64,000 bases of DNA from Candidatus Parcubacteria bacterium (GTDB lineage: Bacteria > Patescibacteriota > Patescibacteriia > CAIXNZ01), in assembly GCA_026395685.1 (NCBI GenBank), contig JAPLYG010000009.1, positions 17,519 to 81,518 of the forward strand, written 5' to 3'. The notes under the pieces are model-generated. The model saw nothing but the letters and a program-made list of their open reading frames with translations. It ran no database searches and was not told where the DNA came from. Every line of letters begins with the position of its first letter. Position 1 is the first letter of the stretch. A program made the position numbers and the translations under genes. This document shows, piece by piece, positions 9,559 through 43,967 of the stretch.

Positions 9559-9613
9559 AGTTATAATTATTAATATTTCTTTGTTAAAATCATATCATAG
9601 ATTAGGAATCTAA

Positions 9614-9646
9614 ACAAAAAGTACCTAACATTAAGTAGGCACTTTT
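9614..9646 (-). terminator. rho-independent terminator downstream of tRNA-Asn
   Basis: Minus-strand AAGUGCCUA-loop-UAGGUACUU 9-bp stem followed by UUUUUG. Confidence 0.55.
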
Positions 9647-9653
9647 AAATTCT

Positions 9654-9728
9654 TGGCTCCGGGGGTGGGATTCGAACCCACGACCAATTGATTAACAGTC
9701 AACTGCGCTACCGCTGCGCTACCCCGGA
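9654..9728 (-). tRNA. tRNA-Asn (anticodon GTT), CCA encoded
   Basis: Hand-folded cloverleaf: acceptor TCCGGGG/CCCCGGA, D-stem GCGC, anticodon loop CTGTTAA, T-arm GTGGG-TTCGAAT-CCCAC. Confidence 0.85.
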
Positions 9729-9761
9729 ATGTTTTAAATTCTTAATTTACTTAATTCTAAT

Positions 9762-9843
9762 CGGGTAGCGCAGCGCACAACGTAAGTACTAAGCTTAACT
9801 GCCTGCCCGCCGAAACTTTAGTGTAGGCGGGCGCTACCCCGGA
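9762..9843. repeat. palindromic element built from two inverted copies of the tRNA-Asn 5' end (GGGTAGCGCAGCGC / GCGCTACCCCGGA) enclosing a GCCCGCC...GGCGGGC hairpin
   Basis: Direct comparison with the adjacent tRNA-Asn sequence. Confidence 0.6.
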
Positions 9844-9928
9844 AGGTAAATAAAAAAACAGAATTTTAAAATCCGTTTTGCTAAAACTAGCATATCATAA
9901 ATGGCAATAATTGGCAAGACCCAAAACC

Positions 9929-11110
9929 CTAAAAATCCCTCAGTTTCTCAATGCCTGCATGCTGTTTAATCCTTTCCAAAGACTTGGCTTCAATCTGCCT
10001 GATACGTTCACGGGTAACATCAAACTCCTGTCCTACTTCTTCCAGAGTATGCGCCACACCATCAGTCAGGCCGAAACGCATTTCCAGGATCTTTTGCTCA
10101 CGCGGTGATAATTCGCTGATAATGCCGCGGACATAATCCCGTAGAAGTTCCAAGGCAGCTGAACGGTCAGGCGTCATATTTTTCACGTCTTCGATAAAGT
10201 CTTCCAAGGTTGAATCTTCCTCGTCCTCGCCAACAGAAGTCTCCAAAGAAATTGTTTCCTGAGAAATATTGATAATGTGCCTGACTTTCTCAATATCTTC
10301 TCCCATTTCTGCGGCAATTTCTTCCGGCAATGGTTCACGTCCCAAATCCTGAATAAGCCGGCGCTGTACCTGCTGAAACTTATTTATTGTTTCCACCATG
10401 TGCACCGGAATACGAATCGTCCTTGACTGATCAGCCAAAGAACGGGTAATCGCCTGACGAATCCACCAAGTTGCATAGGTTGAAAATTTATAGCCTTTTT
10501 TAGGGTCAAATTTTTCTACTGCCTTAAACAAACCGATATTGCCTTCCTGAATCAAATCAAGCAAAGACATGCTTTTACCCACAAATTTCTTGGCAATAGA
10601 AACCACCAAGCGTAAATTCGCCTGTACAATCTTTTTAAAGGCATCTTTATCGCCCTTATCTTTTCTTCTAGCCAAAGACATTTCTTCCTCGCCGGATAAT
10701 AATGGAACTTTACCTATTTCGCGCAAATACATCTGGATTGAATCTTCAGAAATCTCAGATAAATCAAACTTCTTTTTATCCTTACCAATGCCAATTTTCT
10801 CGAAAACTTCTTCCTTTTCCTTGGCAGTACTTAGCATGCCGCCTTTCGGAGCAATTACCTGGACGGTGTTATCCTCTAAAGTATCCAAAAATTTCTCAAA
10901 TAAATCGAGATATTCCTCAACATCGGGAAAAGTATAAATTAATTCTTGTTCGGTAACAAAACCCCGGCTGCGTCCTTTTTCTAAAAGCAACTTCTGCTGT
11001 TCTTCTGTCGGTTTCAAGACACTAACTTTCTCTTTTTTAACTTTTTTCTGCGATATTCTCTTCTTGCCCAATTTCTTGATTTTTTTTATTTTGGCTTTTG
11101 TTTTTTTCAT
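9929..11110 (-). CDS. rpoD: RNA polymerase sigma-70 factor RpoD
   Basis: Regions 2-4 conserved ([27 protein letters not shown]; C-terminal [23 protein letters not shown]). Confidence 0.9.
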
Positions 11111-11133: not shown

Positions 11134-12942
11134 TTAAACTTTTAATCCTTGTAATTGCTGGCTCAAGGCGGAAAAATCCTTCGAAAGCTCCTCAATCTGT
11201 CTTGAATCACGATTTTTTTCAGCTTCAGAAATCAGCTGCTGAACCTGCTTCAATTTTTTAACGAGATAACTCTTTTTTAATTCGCACAAGATATTGATAA
11301 TTTCCGTGCCGACTTGTTCTTCTGTAAAATTAAAAAAATCCTTGTCAGCCAAAAGCAGTAAGGTGGATAAGATCTTTACGATTTCTTGATCTTGGTTTGC
11401 AAATATTTTTTCAAATTCAAAATAGTCAAAACCGCTGTTATTATTATAATACATTACCAGCTCCGTGTAAATCTTTTGCAGCTCATTAAGCGGCAGCATC
11501 TCTTTTTCCAGATGATCGACTAGATACGCAATATTTTGGGGATATTTAAAAATCAAAGCAAAAAGTTGCTCGGCTAAAACAACTTCCCTGTTTTTAACCG
11601 CTATATTTTCTATTCTTGGCTCAGTTTTTTGATACTCATTTTTAACTTTTAAATTATTGAATGTCTCCTGTAAAATATTTGCCGGTACATCTAATTTTTC
11701 TGCCAATTTTCCCAGCCAATGATTTTGTTCAACCTTATCAGCAATCTTAGCAATTTGCTTTAAAAGTCTGGCGGCAATTTCTTTTTTTTGTATAGGATTA
11801 TTTTTATCAAATTGTTCAAAAACTTTGTCAAAATAAAACTCCATGATACTTTTCGCTTCACTAATCGCCTGCTGCCAGTGCTCCACCCCCTGTTTAATGC
11901 AATCGTCGGGATCTTTAACAGTCTTGCCGCCAATTTCTTTCGGCAAAGTAATCACACTGACATTAATACCCAGAGATAAAGCCGTATCTATTCCCCTTTC
12001 AGCCGCTACCTGGCCCGCCAAATCAGCGTCAAAGCAAAGGGCGATATTATTGGTATAGCGCTGTAAGATCTTTAATTGCTCCTGGGTCAAAGCCGTGCCT
12101 GATGAGGCAATCACATTTGTGACTCCGGCCTGATGAGAGGCAATCACATCCATATTGCCTTCAACAACCACTGCCAGATCTTTTTTCCTGATTTCCGATT
12201 TAGCCTTATCTAATCCGAAGACAACCAGACTTTTATTATAAATCATGGTCTGGGGCGTATTTACATATTTGCCGCCCTGATTTTCCCTGCTTTCGTCCAG
12301 GATTCTGCCGGTAAACCCCACGATATTGCCGTTATGATCTGAAATGGGAAACATCAGTCTTTGACGAAAACGGTCATAAAGCTGCCCCCTGTCATTTTTA
12401 ACTTCCAACCCCGCCAAAAATATATCATTATCCTTAAATCCTTTTTTGCGTAATAAATTCAAAAGTATGTCCCAGGAATCAGGCGCATACCCGATTTTAA
12501 AATCGCTGACTGTTTCCGGGTTTAATTTCCTTTTTGCAATATAGTTGCGGGCAATAATTCCTTCTTTGGAGCTCAATAAAACTTTATGGAAAAACTCAGC
12601 GGTTAACTTCAAAATATCCATTAACTTTGTCTTCTGAGATACCATTGTCTGGTCAACTTTTTTTAATTTTACCCCGGCCTTATCGGCCAACAATCTTAAA
12701 GCTTCAGGAAATTCTATATTCTCAATTTTTTGCACAAAGGTAAAAGCATCACCGCCTTCGCCACAGCCAAAACAATGAAAAATCTGTTTGTCTCTGGAAA
12801 CCATAAAAGACGGTGTCTTTTCATTATGAAAGGGACACGGCGCTTTCCAGTTTGTGCCGGCCTGCTTAAGCTGAATATATTCCGAGATAATATCAACTAT
12901 ATCAAGCTTGGATTTTATTTCGTCGACCTGGCTATTTAACAT
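11134..12942 (-). CDS. dnaG: DNA primase DnaG
   Basis: Zinc-ribbon CPFHNEKTPSF...CFGCG, TOPRIM region (VVVEGNMD; CFDADLAG); dnaG-rpoD synteny. Confidence 0.9.
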   Translation of the reverse strand: MLNSQVDEIKSKLDIVDIISEYIQLKQAGTNWKAPCPFHNEKTPSFMVSRDKQIFHCFGCGEGGDAFTFVQKIENIEFPEALRLLADKAGVKLKKVDQTMVSQKTKLMDILKLTAEFFHKVLLSSKEGIIARNYIAKRKLNPETVSDFKIGYAPDSWDILLNLLRKKGFKDNDIFLAGLEVKNDRGQLYDRFRQRLMFPISDHNGNIVGFTGRILDESRENQGGKYVNTPQTMIYNKSLVVFGLDKAKSEIRKKDLAVVVEGNMDVIASHQAGVTNVIASSGTALTQEQLKILQRYTNNIALCFDADLAGQVAAERGIDTALSLGINVSVITLPKEIGGKTVKDPDDCIKQGVEHWQQAISEAKSIMEFYFDKVFEQFDKNNPIQKKEIAARLLKQIAKIADKVEQNHWLGKLAEKLDVPANILQETFNNLKVKNEYQKTEPRIENIAVKNREVVLAEQLFALIFKYPQNIAYLVDHLEKEMLPLNELQKIYTELVMYYNNNSGFDYFEFEKIFANQDQEIVKILSTLLLLADKDFFNFTEEQVGTEIINILCELKKSYLVKKLKQVQQLISEAEKNRDSRQIEELSKDFSALSQQLQGLKV

Positions 12943-33221: not shown

Positions 33222-33297
33222 TGGTACCGCCAAGGGGAATCGGACCCCTGTTACTAAGATGCCCGCCAGAGGCGGGTCCGCCTTCGGCGGAAGAACC
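33222..33297 (-). other. atypical tRNA-like element (T-arm AGGGG-TCCGATT-CCCCT, 3' TGGCGGTACCA, two GC triloop hairpins) that does not fold into a canonical cloverleaf
   Basis: Hand folding fails for the acceptor and anticodon arms; contains the CCGCCTCTGGCGG hairpin also found at 43626-43640. Confidence 0.3.
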
Positions 33298-33305
33298 TTT
33301 TATTA

Positions 33306-33377
33306 TAGCCCCTACGGGAATCGAACCCGTGTTACATGGATGAGAACCATGCGTCCTAGCCACTAGACGAAGAGGCC
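33306..33377 (-). tRNA. tRNA-Glu (anticodon CTC)
   Basis: GGCCTCT acceptor with two GU wobbles, D-arm TTCGTCTAGTGGCTAGGAC similar to E. coli tRNA-Glu, anticodon loop TTCTCAT, T-arm ACGGG-TTCGATT-CCCGT; CCA not encoded. Confidence 0.8.
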
Positions 33378-38168: not shown

Positions 38169-38489
38169 TTATTCACCAAACGAGGCGGCATTGATTTCAG
38201 TCCAGGTATCACTGGCAGTTTCCCATTTATAGGCAAAAAGAGTATTGGTCTTTTCCGTATCTGAAGTTACATAATCAACCTTGGCCGTATCCCCCATTCT
38301 TTTGGAATAATGGACATTTTTTGACAAAACCAAAGGCTTGCTGACAAATTCCAGCTTCATTTTTCCCAATGGCCCGTTAAAAATCAATTCTTCGGTAATA
38401 ACGCCATCACTTTCATTCCTGTTTGTTTCCAAAACCTCAAAATTCTTCTTGGCCATGTCTTTTATTTCTTCCCACTTTTCCGGTGACAT
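38169..38489 (-). CDS. hypothetical 106-aa protein
   Basis: ORF only. Confidence 0.45.
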   Translation of the reverse strand: MSPEKWEEIKDMAKKNFEVLETNRNESDGVITEELIFNGPLGKMKLEFVSKPLVLSKNVHYSKRMGDTAKVDYVTSDTEKTNTLFAYKWETASDTWTEINAASFGE

Positions 38490-38561
38490 AATTTTGATAT
38501 TAAGTACGAAGTTTCAAACTTCAGCCTTCAGACTTCGGCCTTCGGCCTGCCCGCCGTAGCT

Positions 38562-39116
38562 TTAGCGAAGGCGGGACTTAGAAAAAACACAACCGCAATA
38601 ATCCTGTCGATAAAGCCCTAACCTTCCCGCCAGCCAATCAGCAATTTGCGTGCCATATTTTTTCTTAAAATCCTGATCCCAAAACTTCACCTTGTACTTA
38701 CCTTCCACTTTACGCCCGGCGTTTAAAACTTGCAAGGAGTTTTTCTGGCGACCCATGGTCAAGGTGGTACTGAACCAACCATAGCCATTAGCCTGGGCAA
38801 ATTCCGCAGTTTTATCTAAACGCAGCAAAAAGCACAGATTACAACGGAAACCCCGTTCCGGTTCCTGTTCATAACCTTTGACAAATTTTAACCAGTGCTT
38901 TGGCTGATAATGCGCCTCAATATATTTGATCTTTTTACGGCGGCAAAATTCCTTGACTTCAGCCAGACGCTGTAAATACTCGTCCTCGGGAAAAATATTG
39001 GGATTAAAAAAGTAAACAGTTACCTCAAATTTATCCAGCAACTGGTTAATCACGTAAATGCTGCAGGGAGCGCAGCAGGTGTGGAGTAATAACTTTTCTT
39101 TTCCCAAATTATCCAT
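38562..39116 (-). CDS. queH: epoxyqueuosine reductase QueH (DUF208)
   Basis: Hallmark LLLHTCCAPCS motif plus downstream CxxC (CNLCF; CGCV). Confidence 0.85.
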   Translation of the reverse strand: MDNLGKEKLLLHTCCAPCSIYVINQLLDKFEVTVYFFNPNIFPEDEYLQRLAEVKEFCRRKKIKYIEAHYQPKHWLKFVKGYEQEPERGFRCNLCFLLRLDKTAEFAQANGYGWFSTTLTMGRQKNSLQVLNAGRKVEGKYKVKFWDQDFKKKYGTQIADWLAGRLGLYRQDYCGCVFSKSRLR

Positions 39117-41369: not shown

Positions 41370-41442
41370 AGCCGGGAGAGGGGCTTGAACCCACGACCTA
41401 CTGTTTACAAAACAGTTGCTCTACCAACTGAGCTATCCCGGC
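41370..41442 (-). tRNA. tRNA-Thr (anticodon TGT)
   Basis: Acceptor GCCGGGA/TCCCGGC, D-arm GCTCAGTTGGTAGAGC, anticodon loop TTTGTAA, T-loop TTCAAGC; CCA not encoded. Confidence 0.8.
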
Positions 41443-41622
41443 ATATTTAAATTTTACTGGTTCGGCTTAGGCAGGCGGGTATGTTCTACCAGCTGAGCCT
41501 GGGGGGCATTGACAAGACATTAAACTTATGTAAAATATTTTATCAGAAAACAAAATAAATGTCAAAGCTTGGCTAAAATCCCAAATTTGATATAATAGAA
41601 TCACTATTTAAATTAACAAAGT

Positions 41623-43558: not shown

Positions 43559-43662
43559 ATTATAAAAACTTAAAATTCAAAATTCTAATTACTAATTACA
43601 ATTCCTTAGCCGTTGCGCGGATTTTCCGCCAGAGGCGGATCAGCCTCTGGCTGAGAACCATG

Positions 43663-43735
43663 AGCCGTTGTGGAGACTTGAACTCCAGACCTACTCCTTA
43701 CCATGGAGTTGCTCTACCAACTGAGCTACAACGGC
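43663..43735 (-). tRNA. tRNA-Thr (anticodon GGT)
   Basis: Acceptor GCCGTTG/CAACGGC, D-arm GCTCAGTTGGTAGAGC, anticodon loop ATGGTAA, T-arm TGGAG-TTCAAGT-CTCCA. Confidence 0.8.
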
Positions 43736-43967
43736 GTGATATAAACTACTACAACAACTTCTGCGAGCGAAGTTGGTAGGCCGTCCATAATTCTAATTAC
43801 AATTTTAACTGCCTGCCCAGGCGCTCGCGAGCGGCTGGGCCTGTCCGCCGTAGCCCTCCGTAGCATTAGCGTAGGATGGGCGTAGGCGGAAGCTACAACG
43901 GCGTGATATAAACTACTACAACAACTTCAGCAAGCGAAGTTGGTAGGCCGTCCATAATTCTAATTAC
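43725..43967. repeat. 76-bp direct repeat (2 copies, 43725-43800 and 43892-43967, 2 mismatches) whose second copy carries an 11-nt copy of the tRNA-Thr 5' end
   Basis: Direct comparison of the two copies; 91-bp spacer contains a CTGCCYRCC...GGCGG-type hairpin. Confidence 0.7.

Follow-up and report, generated by a model that had tools for sequence, protein, structure and literature searches.

This study concerns a short palindromic element that lies immediately 5′ of the gene for tRNA-Asn(GTT) in the genome of an uncultured member of the Parcubacteria (Patescibacteria), the RpoD of which is 100% identical to a protein recorded as 'Candidatus Parcubacteria bacterium'. All coordinates refer to the 64-kb stretch of this genome that was analyzed, which we call the window. 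On the minus strand, the order of features is dnaG, rpoD, a promoter, a leader hairpin with a run of seven T residues, the element, a spacer, tRNA-Asn, a terminator, and an unnamed open reading frame (ORF) of 124 aa (Table 1). Other neighbors of the tRNA gene encode an ABC-F protein, Ham1, an Excalibur-domain protein and a VTT-domain protein. We find that the element is real and recurrent, and that it is not a standard integrase scar, a tRNA or a known RNA family. The reading that we tentatively favor is a small palindromic insertion into the tRNA gene, tolerated because the start of the tRNA was regenerated.

Table 1. Features of the tRNA-Asn locus and of two related loci elsewhere in the window.
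Feature	Position	Strand	Basis
tRNA-Asn(GTT), with encoded CCA	9654–9728	minus	ARAGORN; Rfam RF00005, 74 bits
Intrinsic terminator of the tRNA-Asn unit	9617–9646	minus	terminator scan: 11-bp stem, then T-run
AT-rich conserved spacer (GATTAGAATTAAGTAAATTAAGAATTTAAAACA) between element and tRNA, part of the inserted unit	9730–9762	minus	alignment
Antisense arm, reading GCGCTGCGCTACCC on the tRNA strand and reverse-complementary to tRNA-Asn nt 4–16	9763–9776	minus	inverted repeat
Variable region 2, unalignable between subfamilies	9777–9798	minus	alignment
GGGCAGGCAG box, predicted to form helix 3 of the three-way junction by GCAG–CUGC pairing to the antisense arm	9799–9808	minus	alignment, folding
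Inner hairpin H: GCCCGCC, 14-nt loop, GGCGGGC	9805–9832 (stems 9805–9811 / 9826–9832)	minus	inverted repeat; covariance model R2, 54.9 bits
Decoy arm, direct copy of tRNA-Asn −4 to +13 (ACCTTCCGGGGTAGCGC)	9831–9847	minus	repeat of 9716–9732
Leader hairpin plus seven-T run, terminator-like, directly upstream of the element	9850–9879	minus	sequence
Sigma-70 promoter with extended −10 (TTGCCA, 17 nt, TGA TATGCT) for the tRNA-Asn unit	9889–9917	minus	promoter scan
Solo H (CCCGCC TTCGCTAAAGCTAC GGCGGG CAGGC), overlapping the queH stop codon (ORF 38562–39116)	38538–38581	minus	R2, 44.1 bits; Pfam QueH
Analogous element upstream of tRNA-Thr(GGT)	43736–43967	minus	sequence; k-mer scan; R1 weak match 43772–43852; R2 43843–43885, 34.3 bits

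The original prediction described an 82-bp unit whose outer arms, sense and antisense copies of tRNA-Asn nt 3–16, enclose a GCCCGCC/GGCGGGC hairpin, and took it for a scar left by an integrase or by template switching. Everything so described is present, and both arms do derive from the 5′ end of the tRNA. The upstream arm, here termed the decoy, is a direct repeat of the gene in the same orientation (16 of 17 nt identical). The downstream arm is an antisense copy, complementary to the tRNA at 13 of 13 positions (9763–9775 versus 9712–9724), although the match spans nt 4–16, the 14th base being mismatched. Decoy and antisense arm are mutually complementary over 9 bp. The unit itself has to be drawn larger than 82 bp: measured against the empty sites of relatives, the insertion comes to ~115 bp (9730–9844), within which both a GCAGGCAG box and an AT-rich spacer of 33 nt are conserved. 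Elements of this long type are built in a fixed order, namely the decoy (tRNA −1 to +13), the hairpin, AG, GCAG, a variable region of 24–33 nt, CUGC and GCUACC(C), which together form the antisense arm, the AT-rich spacer of ~33 nt, and finally the tRNA. The GGGCAGGCAG box is invariant in all six elements known at tRNA-Asn and is present also in an element at tRNA-Thr (below); pairing of its GCAG with the CUGC of the antisense arm is predicted both by RNAalifold and by folds of single sequences. The spacer is homologous in the five long elements and missing from element-free leaders.

The direct and inverted repeats are not due to chance. When the 201-nt upstream region was shuffled 5000 times, a direct match of 13 nt to the tRNA never arose (0/5000; maximum 12), and 13 nt was the longest inverted match in any shuffle. 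Matches of at least 10 nt were seen in 42 of the 5000 shuffles in direct orientation and in 32 in inverted orientation. As the original prediction held, the element is not a second tRNA: ARAGORN recognizes the true tRNA-Asn only, Rfam gives no tRNA-clan match on 9762–9850 at E≤10, and Rfam 15 at the same threshold contains no relevant family for 9560–9930. A transfer-messenger RNA or known non-coding RNA was rejected on the same ARAGORN and Rfam results, which also give no sign of the cloverleaf with anticodon and T arms that a tRNA gene or tRNA pseudogene would have. No integrase, transposase or element gene lies between or near the repeats, which here stand only about 100 bp apart, or among the neighboring ORFs, and no cognate transposase was found among 14 ORFs checked, all of them in the 64-kb window.

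We compared tRNA-Asn loci of related lineages. Seven of these (L083, L132, L082, L085, L086, L129/130 and L131) were retrieved via RpoD and are hence unbiased with regard to the element, while three (L087, L088 and L089) were found in JGI metagenomes with a three-block DNA pattern. Four other Parcubacteria lineages (L083, L087, L088 and L089) have a homologous element in front of tRNA-Asn. In L132 there is a shorter variant, which keeps the hairpin and GCAGGCAG and lacks the antisense arm; its decoy reads GTAGCTC (GCTC), matching the tRNA of its own lineage. The element thus recurs in five lineages beyond the window, with RpoD identities of 83–92%. Comparison of related loci, as envisaged in the original prediction, also yielded clean empty sites, in L082, L085, L086, L129/130 and L131, where the leader hairpin abuts the tRNA. 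In more distant relatives (RpoD ~70%), rpoD is followed by tRNA-Asn without an element. On the RpoD tree, carriers fall into two clades with non-carriers nested among them, L082 being sister to L083, so that the distribution is patchy. The type of hairpin is also incongruent with this tree, since a short stem with a TTCGCT loop is found in the window and L088, and a CGCACT stem in L083, L087 and L089. The original prediction had reasoned that a functional conserved structure would flank tRNA-Asn in all relatives and show compensatory covariation. The element does recur with compensatory changes in its hairpin, but several close relatives lack it.

Between L087 and L089, a 234-nt stretch that holds the element, the spacer and the tRNA 5′ end is 86% identical, as compared to 76–78% for the flanking coding DNA; over element and spacer, about 8 of 129 positions differ by eye (~94% identity). 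The tRNA unit as a whole has changed orientation with respect to rpoD from one lineage to another, and these flips are independent of the element.

These comparisons also separate what is constant in the element from what is not. In every case the duplication ends at tRNA nt 12–14 and begins upstream of +1. Five sites have direct repeats of 14–19 nt; the repeat is 43 nt long in L083 and 77 nt long at tRNA-Thr. The antisense arm is found in the window, L083, L087, L088 and L089 and not in L132; because the L132 variant does without it, the arm is secondary and restricted to one subfamily. The constant core is a direct copy of the leader and tRNA nt 1–13, then the hairpin, then CAGGCAG, and the palindrome of tRNA ends that drew attention to the locus characterizes a single subfamily. 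The 9-bp perfect arms GGGTAGCGC and GCGCTACCC could be read as the terminal inverted repeats of a miniature inverted-repeat transposable element (MITE), yet they are tRNA-derived and are missing from the L132 variant.

The setting of the element is conserved. In all 11 loci compared (window 9850–9917, L082–L089 and L129–L132), a promoter module TTGACn/TTGCCA-17-TGnTAnnnT is followed at once by a hairpin and a run of 5–7 T residues, whose stems covary (they differ yet stay complementary), and only then by the tRNA-Asn unit, with the element first where there is one. In element-free relatives such as L082, the leader hairpin abuts the tRNA itself. As the element occupies the position at which the tRNA starts in these relatives, transcription as part of the pre-tRNA leader is expected; all copies of the element lie downstream of the conserved sigma-70 promoter and are hence probably co-transcribed with the tRNA. 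We also considered a promoter within the 33-nt spacer, on either strand. The alignment, inspected by eye, contains no consistent −35/−10 across lineages, and this idea was dropped, the conserved promoter being located upstream of the leader hairpin instead. An invertible promoter switch between the 13-bp inverted repeats was discounted on general grounds, as the enclosed segment is only 38 bp. The leader hairpin with its T-run may function as an attenuator within the leader of the tRNA, or as a terminator shared with the upstream gene. In the window, this AT hairpin could end rpoD transcripts, but the same arrangement accompanies the tRNA unit where rpoD is not upstream (L085, L087), and an rpoD terminator was rejected on this ground.

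An analogous element precedes tRNA-Thr(GGT) in the window, and was located through a weak match of the element model. A 77-nt direct repeat (43967→43891 and 43800→43724), consisting of the leader and tRNA nt 1–12, flanks a 90-nt GC-rich insert (43890→43801), which contains a nested copy of the inner hairpin H, a second GC hairpin and, at its end, GGGCAGGCAGTTAA. The junction, at nt 12 after GUAGCU, matches those of the Asn elements, which follow GUAGCGC or GUAGCUC, and the GGGCAGGCAGTTAA motif is common to both. The duplicated tRNA-Thr leader (43724–43800 and 43891–43967) holds a hairpin of its own, in which CTACCAACT complements D-loop nt 14–22 and GTTGTAG equals nt 4–10. These tRNA-like arms may be a matter of chance (the match is 9 nt), or may reflect a tendency like that seen at tRNA-Asn.

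The inner hairpin has a distribution of its own. In canonical form, H consists of a variable 4-bp stem, CC-UUC-GC-UAAA-GC-UAC-GG, and the complementary stem, usually followed by CAGGC or CAAGC; a 3×3 internal loop is thus followed by two GC pairs and a tetraloop. The Asn copy of the window has its inner two pairs changed from GC/GC to AC/GU. Covariance model R2 finds three matches in the 64-kb window (9805–9832, 38538–38581 and 43843–43885) and another in L082 (154–187). The complete composite was found nowhere but at tRNA 5′ ends. Beyond tRNA loci, H occurs in or at protein-coding genes. The solo copy in the window overlaps the stop codon of queH, the copy in L082 lies within an in-frame insertion of 44 codons (~132 nt) in a Wzy-like gene whose window ortholog has no insertion, and in L018, a Yanofskybacteria genome, H with the exact core lies in frame in dnaG (1640–1679), the insertion encoding ..SVALAKDG... 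The exact 18-mer core CCTTCGCTAAAGCTACGG is found, moreover, at 32 loci in IMG/VR viral contigs (L090–L121), among them a fragment of a tailed phage that bears portal, protease and capsid genes, and AT-rich giant-virus bins. Other copies of the inner hairpin, which the original prediction had considered worth seeking, thus form a dispersed family, and the hairpin is not local debris.

In 34 of 35 non-redundant copies, the core is flanked by complementary stems (mean 4.7 bp), and in one it has none. Stem pairs over the 35 copies comprise 141 Watson-Crick, 7 A·C, 1 G·U and 16 other, and the hairpin of the element has likewise undergone compensatory stem changes across lineages. The orientation of H relative to neighboring genes varies, and the hairpin may act as RNA or as DNA. 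Rfam has no family for a canonical copy (38440–38660 scanned, E≤10), the core sequence in either orientation has no match in the text of the papers searched, and GenBank records of cultured phages gave no convincing match. H-bearing viral contigs have no tRNA gene next to H; at one locus, in L103, a tRNA-Thr lies ~740 nt away. In one 50-kb viral contig (L110, ~12030–12100), H abuts a tRNA 3′ fragment composed of T arm, acceptor strand and CCA, with CCA-G forming part of the stem; this may be an attachment (att) site with an adjoining hairpin. The three-block pattern of the element has no match in the viral contigs, and the seven matches there of the junction 16-mer TTCCGGGGTAGCGCCC are all chance occurrences in GC-rich coding DNA, on which grounds carriage of the element by phages was rejected. 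The H family behaves as dispersed and probably mobile DNA. Parcubacteria, a tailed-phage fragment and AT-rich giant-virus bins all have an identical H core, which is worth defining as a family and points either to a mobile module exchanged very widely or to a hairpin conserved for recognition by a protein.

What might the element do as RNA? The RNAalifold consensus of the long elements is a three-way junction, and every long element, folded singly, gives the same structure (z-scores −2.7 to −6.2). With 96% of cells paired, covariation is modest: 2 of 21 pairs show compensatory changes (in the hairpin, helix 2), and helices 1 and 3 are invariant. When the element folds by itself, decoy and invariant GCAG box between them occupy the entire antisense arm and leave no toehold free, which could account for the conservation of those blocks. 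For the precursor of the window, ViennaRNA predicts −65.0 kcal/mol for the element fold plus cloverleaf and −81.6 kcal/mol for a strand-swapped fold, the predicted minimum, on nearest-neighbor energies that leave out tRNA tertiary structure and fast RNase P cleavage. In the swapped fold, the antisense arm pairs with the real tRNA nt 4–16 and decoy nt 1–7 pair with the 3′ acceptor strand of the tRNA. The barrier between the two states is estimated at ~10 kcal/mol, and the preference flips once ~16 nt of the tRNA have been made. A swapped minimum-energy fold is predicted in all four lineages tested. The same outcome is obtained, however, for two controls that have no antisense arm (L132 and the tRNA-Thr element), so that the prediction is in part generic, following simply from the presence of the 5′ strand in duplicate.

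We interpret the element, with a probability of roughly 0.45, as a small non-autonomous palindromic insertion, similar to a MITE or a Rickettsia palindromic element (RPE), that landed after tRNA nt 13. A gene-less insertion of ~115 bp, built on H, would have entered the transcribed 5′ leader of tRNA-Asn immediately after nt 13 (GUAGCNC). The upstream copy would be left behind as a 13-nt decoy, and the downstream copy would restore the complete tRNA gene. Because the duplication regenerates an intact tRNA start, the insertion would be tolerated. The insert would be co-transcribed from the conserved tRNA promoter, and RNase P would discard it by cutting at the real +1; with the duplication reaching upstream of +1, a complete tRNA follows the insert, and RNase P can remove everything upstream. 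Insertions without such a duplication would destroy a tRNA gene that is probably single-copy, and would consequently not be seen. Recombination between the direct repeats would yield clean empty sites and a patchy distribution. One subfamily, including that of the window, would have gained an inverted copy of tRNA nt 4–16, for which template switching, as the original prediction proposed, is a possible source. In the RNA, the decoy and the GCAG box would pair all 12–13 nt of this antisense arm in the three-way junction; were it not so held, the arm could instead bind the 5′ end of the real tRNA.

Several points weigh against this interpretation. No transposase or other mobilizing enzyme was found, so that mobility is deduced only from presence/absence and dispersal. 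Classical target-site duplications are shorter and less variable than the direct repeats seen here (14–19, 43 and 77 nt), and copies of the whole element, unlike those of the hairpin alone, are found only at tRNA 5′ ends. Additionally, the relative numbers of G·U and A·C pairs favor the tRNA-sense strand for the Asn elements and the reverse strand for viral H (7 A·C versus 1 G·U). The close similarity of element and spacer between L087 and L089 fits purifying selection on a function as well as it fits recent exchange. One caveat concerns the conserved blocks themselves: half of the six examples (L087, L088 and L089) came from a search whose pattern fixed three blocks, and block conservation is therefore partly a matter of ascertainment.

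An alternative, compatible with a mobile origin, is that the element acts in cis as an RNA device in the pre-tRNA-Asn leader. The antisense arm would pair either with the decoy, leaving the tRNA free for RNase P, or with the real tRNA 5′ end, giving a misfolded precursor, and would in this way gate or slow maturation. The modeling speaks for this, with two predicted precursor states that flip at tRNA nt 1–16, a swapped fold in each of the four lineages, and an antisense arm that is wholly covered in the element fold. The elevated identity between L087 and L089 over element and spacer, the compensatory changes in helix 2 and the preference of G·U pairs for the tRNA-sense strand point in the same direction. 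We nevertheless consider such a device unlikely, given that close relatives manage without the element and that the L132 variant has no antisense arm. With 2 of 21 pairs covarying, helices 1 and 3 are invariant and, for three sequences, were fixed by the search pattern; the swapped fold is partly generic, as the L132 and tRNA-Thr controls indicate, and the energies ignore tertiary structure of the tRNA and rapid cleavage by RNase P. An extended version of this idea would make the element an undescribed pre-tRNA leader device in which decoy and antisense copies of the tRNA's own 5′ end form a three-way junction, strand-swapping gates both folding and RNase P maturation of the only nearby tRNA-Asn, and the whole is built on and spread by the H module, itself undescribed and common to Candidate Phyla Radiation (CPR) bacteria, uncultured phages and giant-virus bins. 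In this full form we regard it as rather improbable.

It is also conceivable, as the original prediction had it, that an integrase was at work, in which case the element would be the fused attL/attR remnant of a larger integrative element or prophage at the tRNA-Asn 5′ end, whose attP carried the leader and nt 1–13 and whose interior was later deleted. Much of the anatomy agrees with this: there is a displaced 5′ fragment, foreign DNA bracketed by a direct tRNA repeat, a regenerated complete tRNA, and empty sites in relatives. This is the logic of tDNA islands, in which a tRNA gene is split, a fragment is displaced and a copy borne by the insert regenerates the intact gene (PMC4383910), and pelagiphages integrate at tRNA 5′ ends with a partial 5′ tRNA copy carried by the element (bioRxiv 10.1101/410191). 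The tRNA-Asn locus is, furthermore, a hot spot of rearrangement, with its flips of orientation versus rpoD and a group I intron in L003 and L087, and in viral contig L110 H abuts a tRNA 3′ fragment. What does not fit is that the 56–115 bp between the repeats contain no integrase, transposase or element gene. The long Asn elements, the L132 variant and the tRNA-Thr case, three structurally different cases, are all of this uniformly tiny size and have H right after the displaced fragment, and three independent near-complete deletions are unlikely. H occurs in protein-coding genes as well, where no tRNA att site is involved, and in viral contigs the junction TTCCGGGGTAGCGCCC has only chance matches and the three-block pattern none. 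An integrase remnant is thus, in our view, a quite unlikely origin. That the element is instead a decayed tandem or inverted duplicate of tRNA-Asn, a pseudogene of which only the ends are recognizable and whose stems were kept by descent and not by selection, seems very improbable. The duplications in L083 (43 nt, spacer plus nt 1–13) and at tRNA-Thr (77 nt) do resemble tandem duplications, and tRNA fragments flank other tRNA genes of the window. Against this, the interior has no residual similarity to a tRNA body and no tRNA or Rfam signal, and belongs to an unrelated family of dispersed hairpins; independent cases share one breakpoint (nt 12–14), and pairing in the hairpin has been kept through double substitutions.

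Like RPEs, MITEs and repetitive extragenic palindromes (REPs), the tRNA-Asn element is a short, palindromic, gene-less insertion whose presence varies between close relatives, and its hairpin module occurs in several copies per genome. It differs from them in its long duplication (14–77 nt), which regenerates the tRNA start. RPEs occur both in intergenic regions and in frame inside essential genes (PMC10969869), and H similarly lies in frame within dnaG of L018 and the Wzy-like gene of L082 and overlaps the stop of queH. Unlike in these families, only the ~18-nt loop core of H is conserved, the stems varying yet staying complementary, and the same core is found in CPR bacteria and in very different viral contigs. 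In REPs, GTAG stands at the 5′ foot (PMC3733652), whereas in H it lies in the loop on the reverse strand; for this reason, and because no REP-associated tyrosine transposase (RAYT) was seen, we do not assign H to the REP/RAYT system. Mechanisms like those of IS91, Helitrons or casposons were considered in view of the hairpin with its CAAG motif and the long duplications, and no supporting gene or end structure was found, so that they are a matter of speculation. We know of no cognate transposase for H elements. Compared with tRNA-borne islands and prophages, with which it shares the split gene, the displaced fragment, the regenerated tRNA and the empty sites, the element is far smaller, has no integrase, consists of a structured palindrome conserved across lineages, and carries an extra inverted copy of the tRNA 5′ end that is no part of att-site anatomy. 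With two-state leader RNAs (attenuators, riboswitch platforms, pre-tRNA spacers) it has in common a transcribed leader, mutually exclusive pairings and a predicted co-transcriptional switch; the target here would be tRNA folding and processing, not an mRNA, and the evidence for a switch is entirely in silico. In the TIGR (tandem interspaced guide RNA) systems of CPR bacteria and phages, repeat units stand in tandem arrays beside a Tas gene with a Nop domain (PMC12045711). The hairpins described here are solitary, with no such array architecture, and we set TIGR-Tas aside on this basis, no Tas gene having been looked for.

If the insertion reading is correct, small palindromes can colonize the 5′ ends of essential single-copy tRNA genes in streamlined CPR genomes. 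Duplication and RNase P trimming together would hide the insertion and keep it harmless, a new mechanism of tolerance, and such events would be a new source of tRNA-fragment scars that are open to misannotation. If, on the other hand, the leader is a switch, it would be a rare instance of a tRNA whose maturation is controlled by a leader made of its own sequence.

Finally, we note several further features of tRNA loci, both in relatives and in the window. The interval from rpoD to tRNA-Asn differs in gene content in almost every lineage. In L003 (4880–5470) and L087 (9520–10140), a group I intron (Rfam RF00028, 96 and 62 bits) interrupts the anticodon loop of tRNA-Asn(GTT) after ..GGCTGT, and ARAGORN misses both intron-split genes; the L087 intron region contains a 125-aa ORF with HNH-like CxxC/HH motifs, and a homologous reading frame is found in L003. 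A small Cys-rich ORF adjoins tRNA-Asn in L082 (4317–4674), L083 (3296–3451), L085 (4823–4978) and L086 (6722–6877), encoding 51 aa in the latter three, and is not found at the equivalent position of the window. The contigs L001 and L002 end exactly at the 3′ end of tRNA-Asn, before CCA, suggesting that a repeat, or population heterogeneity, downstream of the gene broke the assembly.

Within the window, a tRNA-Glu-like fragment (33225–33300, minus strand) lies just downstream of tRNA-Glu (33306–33377). It runs from nt 30 to CCA (GGTTCT ... CATC TTAGTAACA GGGGTCCGATTCCCC TTGGCGG TA CCA), is broken by two GC hairpins (TCCGCCGAAGGCGGA and CCCGCCTCTGGCGGG) that follow anticodon-loop position 35, and differs from the adjoining intact tRNA-Glu in T stem and acceptor. 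Between tRNA-Thr(GGT) and tRNA-Tyr (43600–43661, minus strand), GC hairpins (CAGCCAGAGGCTG and TCCGCCTCTGGCGGA) are followed by a copy of the tRNA-Thr 3′ acceptor strand (GCAACGGCTAA), and a 13-mer of this region, CCGCCTCTGGCGG, recurs downstream of tRNA-Glu (33263). Directly upstream of the intact tRNA-Thr(TGT) (41370–41442) is a degenerate sequence resembling a tRNA 5′ half (GCCCCCCAGGCTCAGCTGGTAGAACATACCCGCCTGCCTAAGCC; 41445–41520, minus strand). Save for the downstream side of tRNA-Tyr, every tRNA locus in the window is accompanied by tRNA fragments or GC hairpins.

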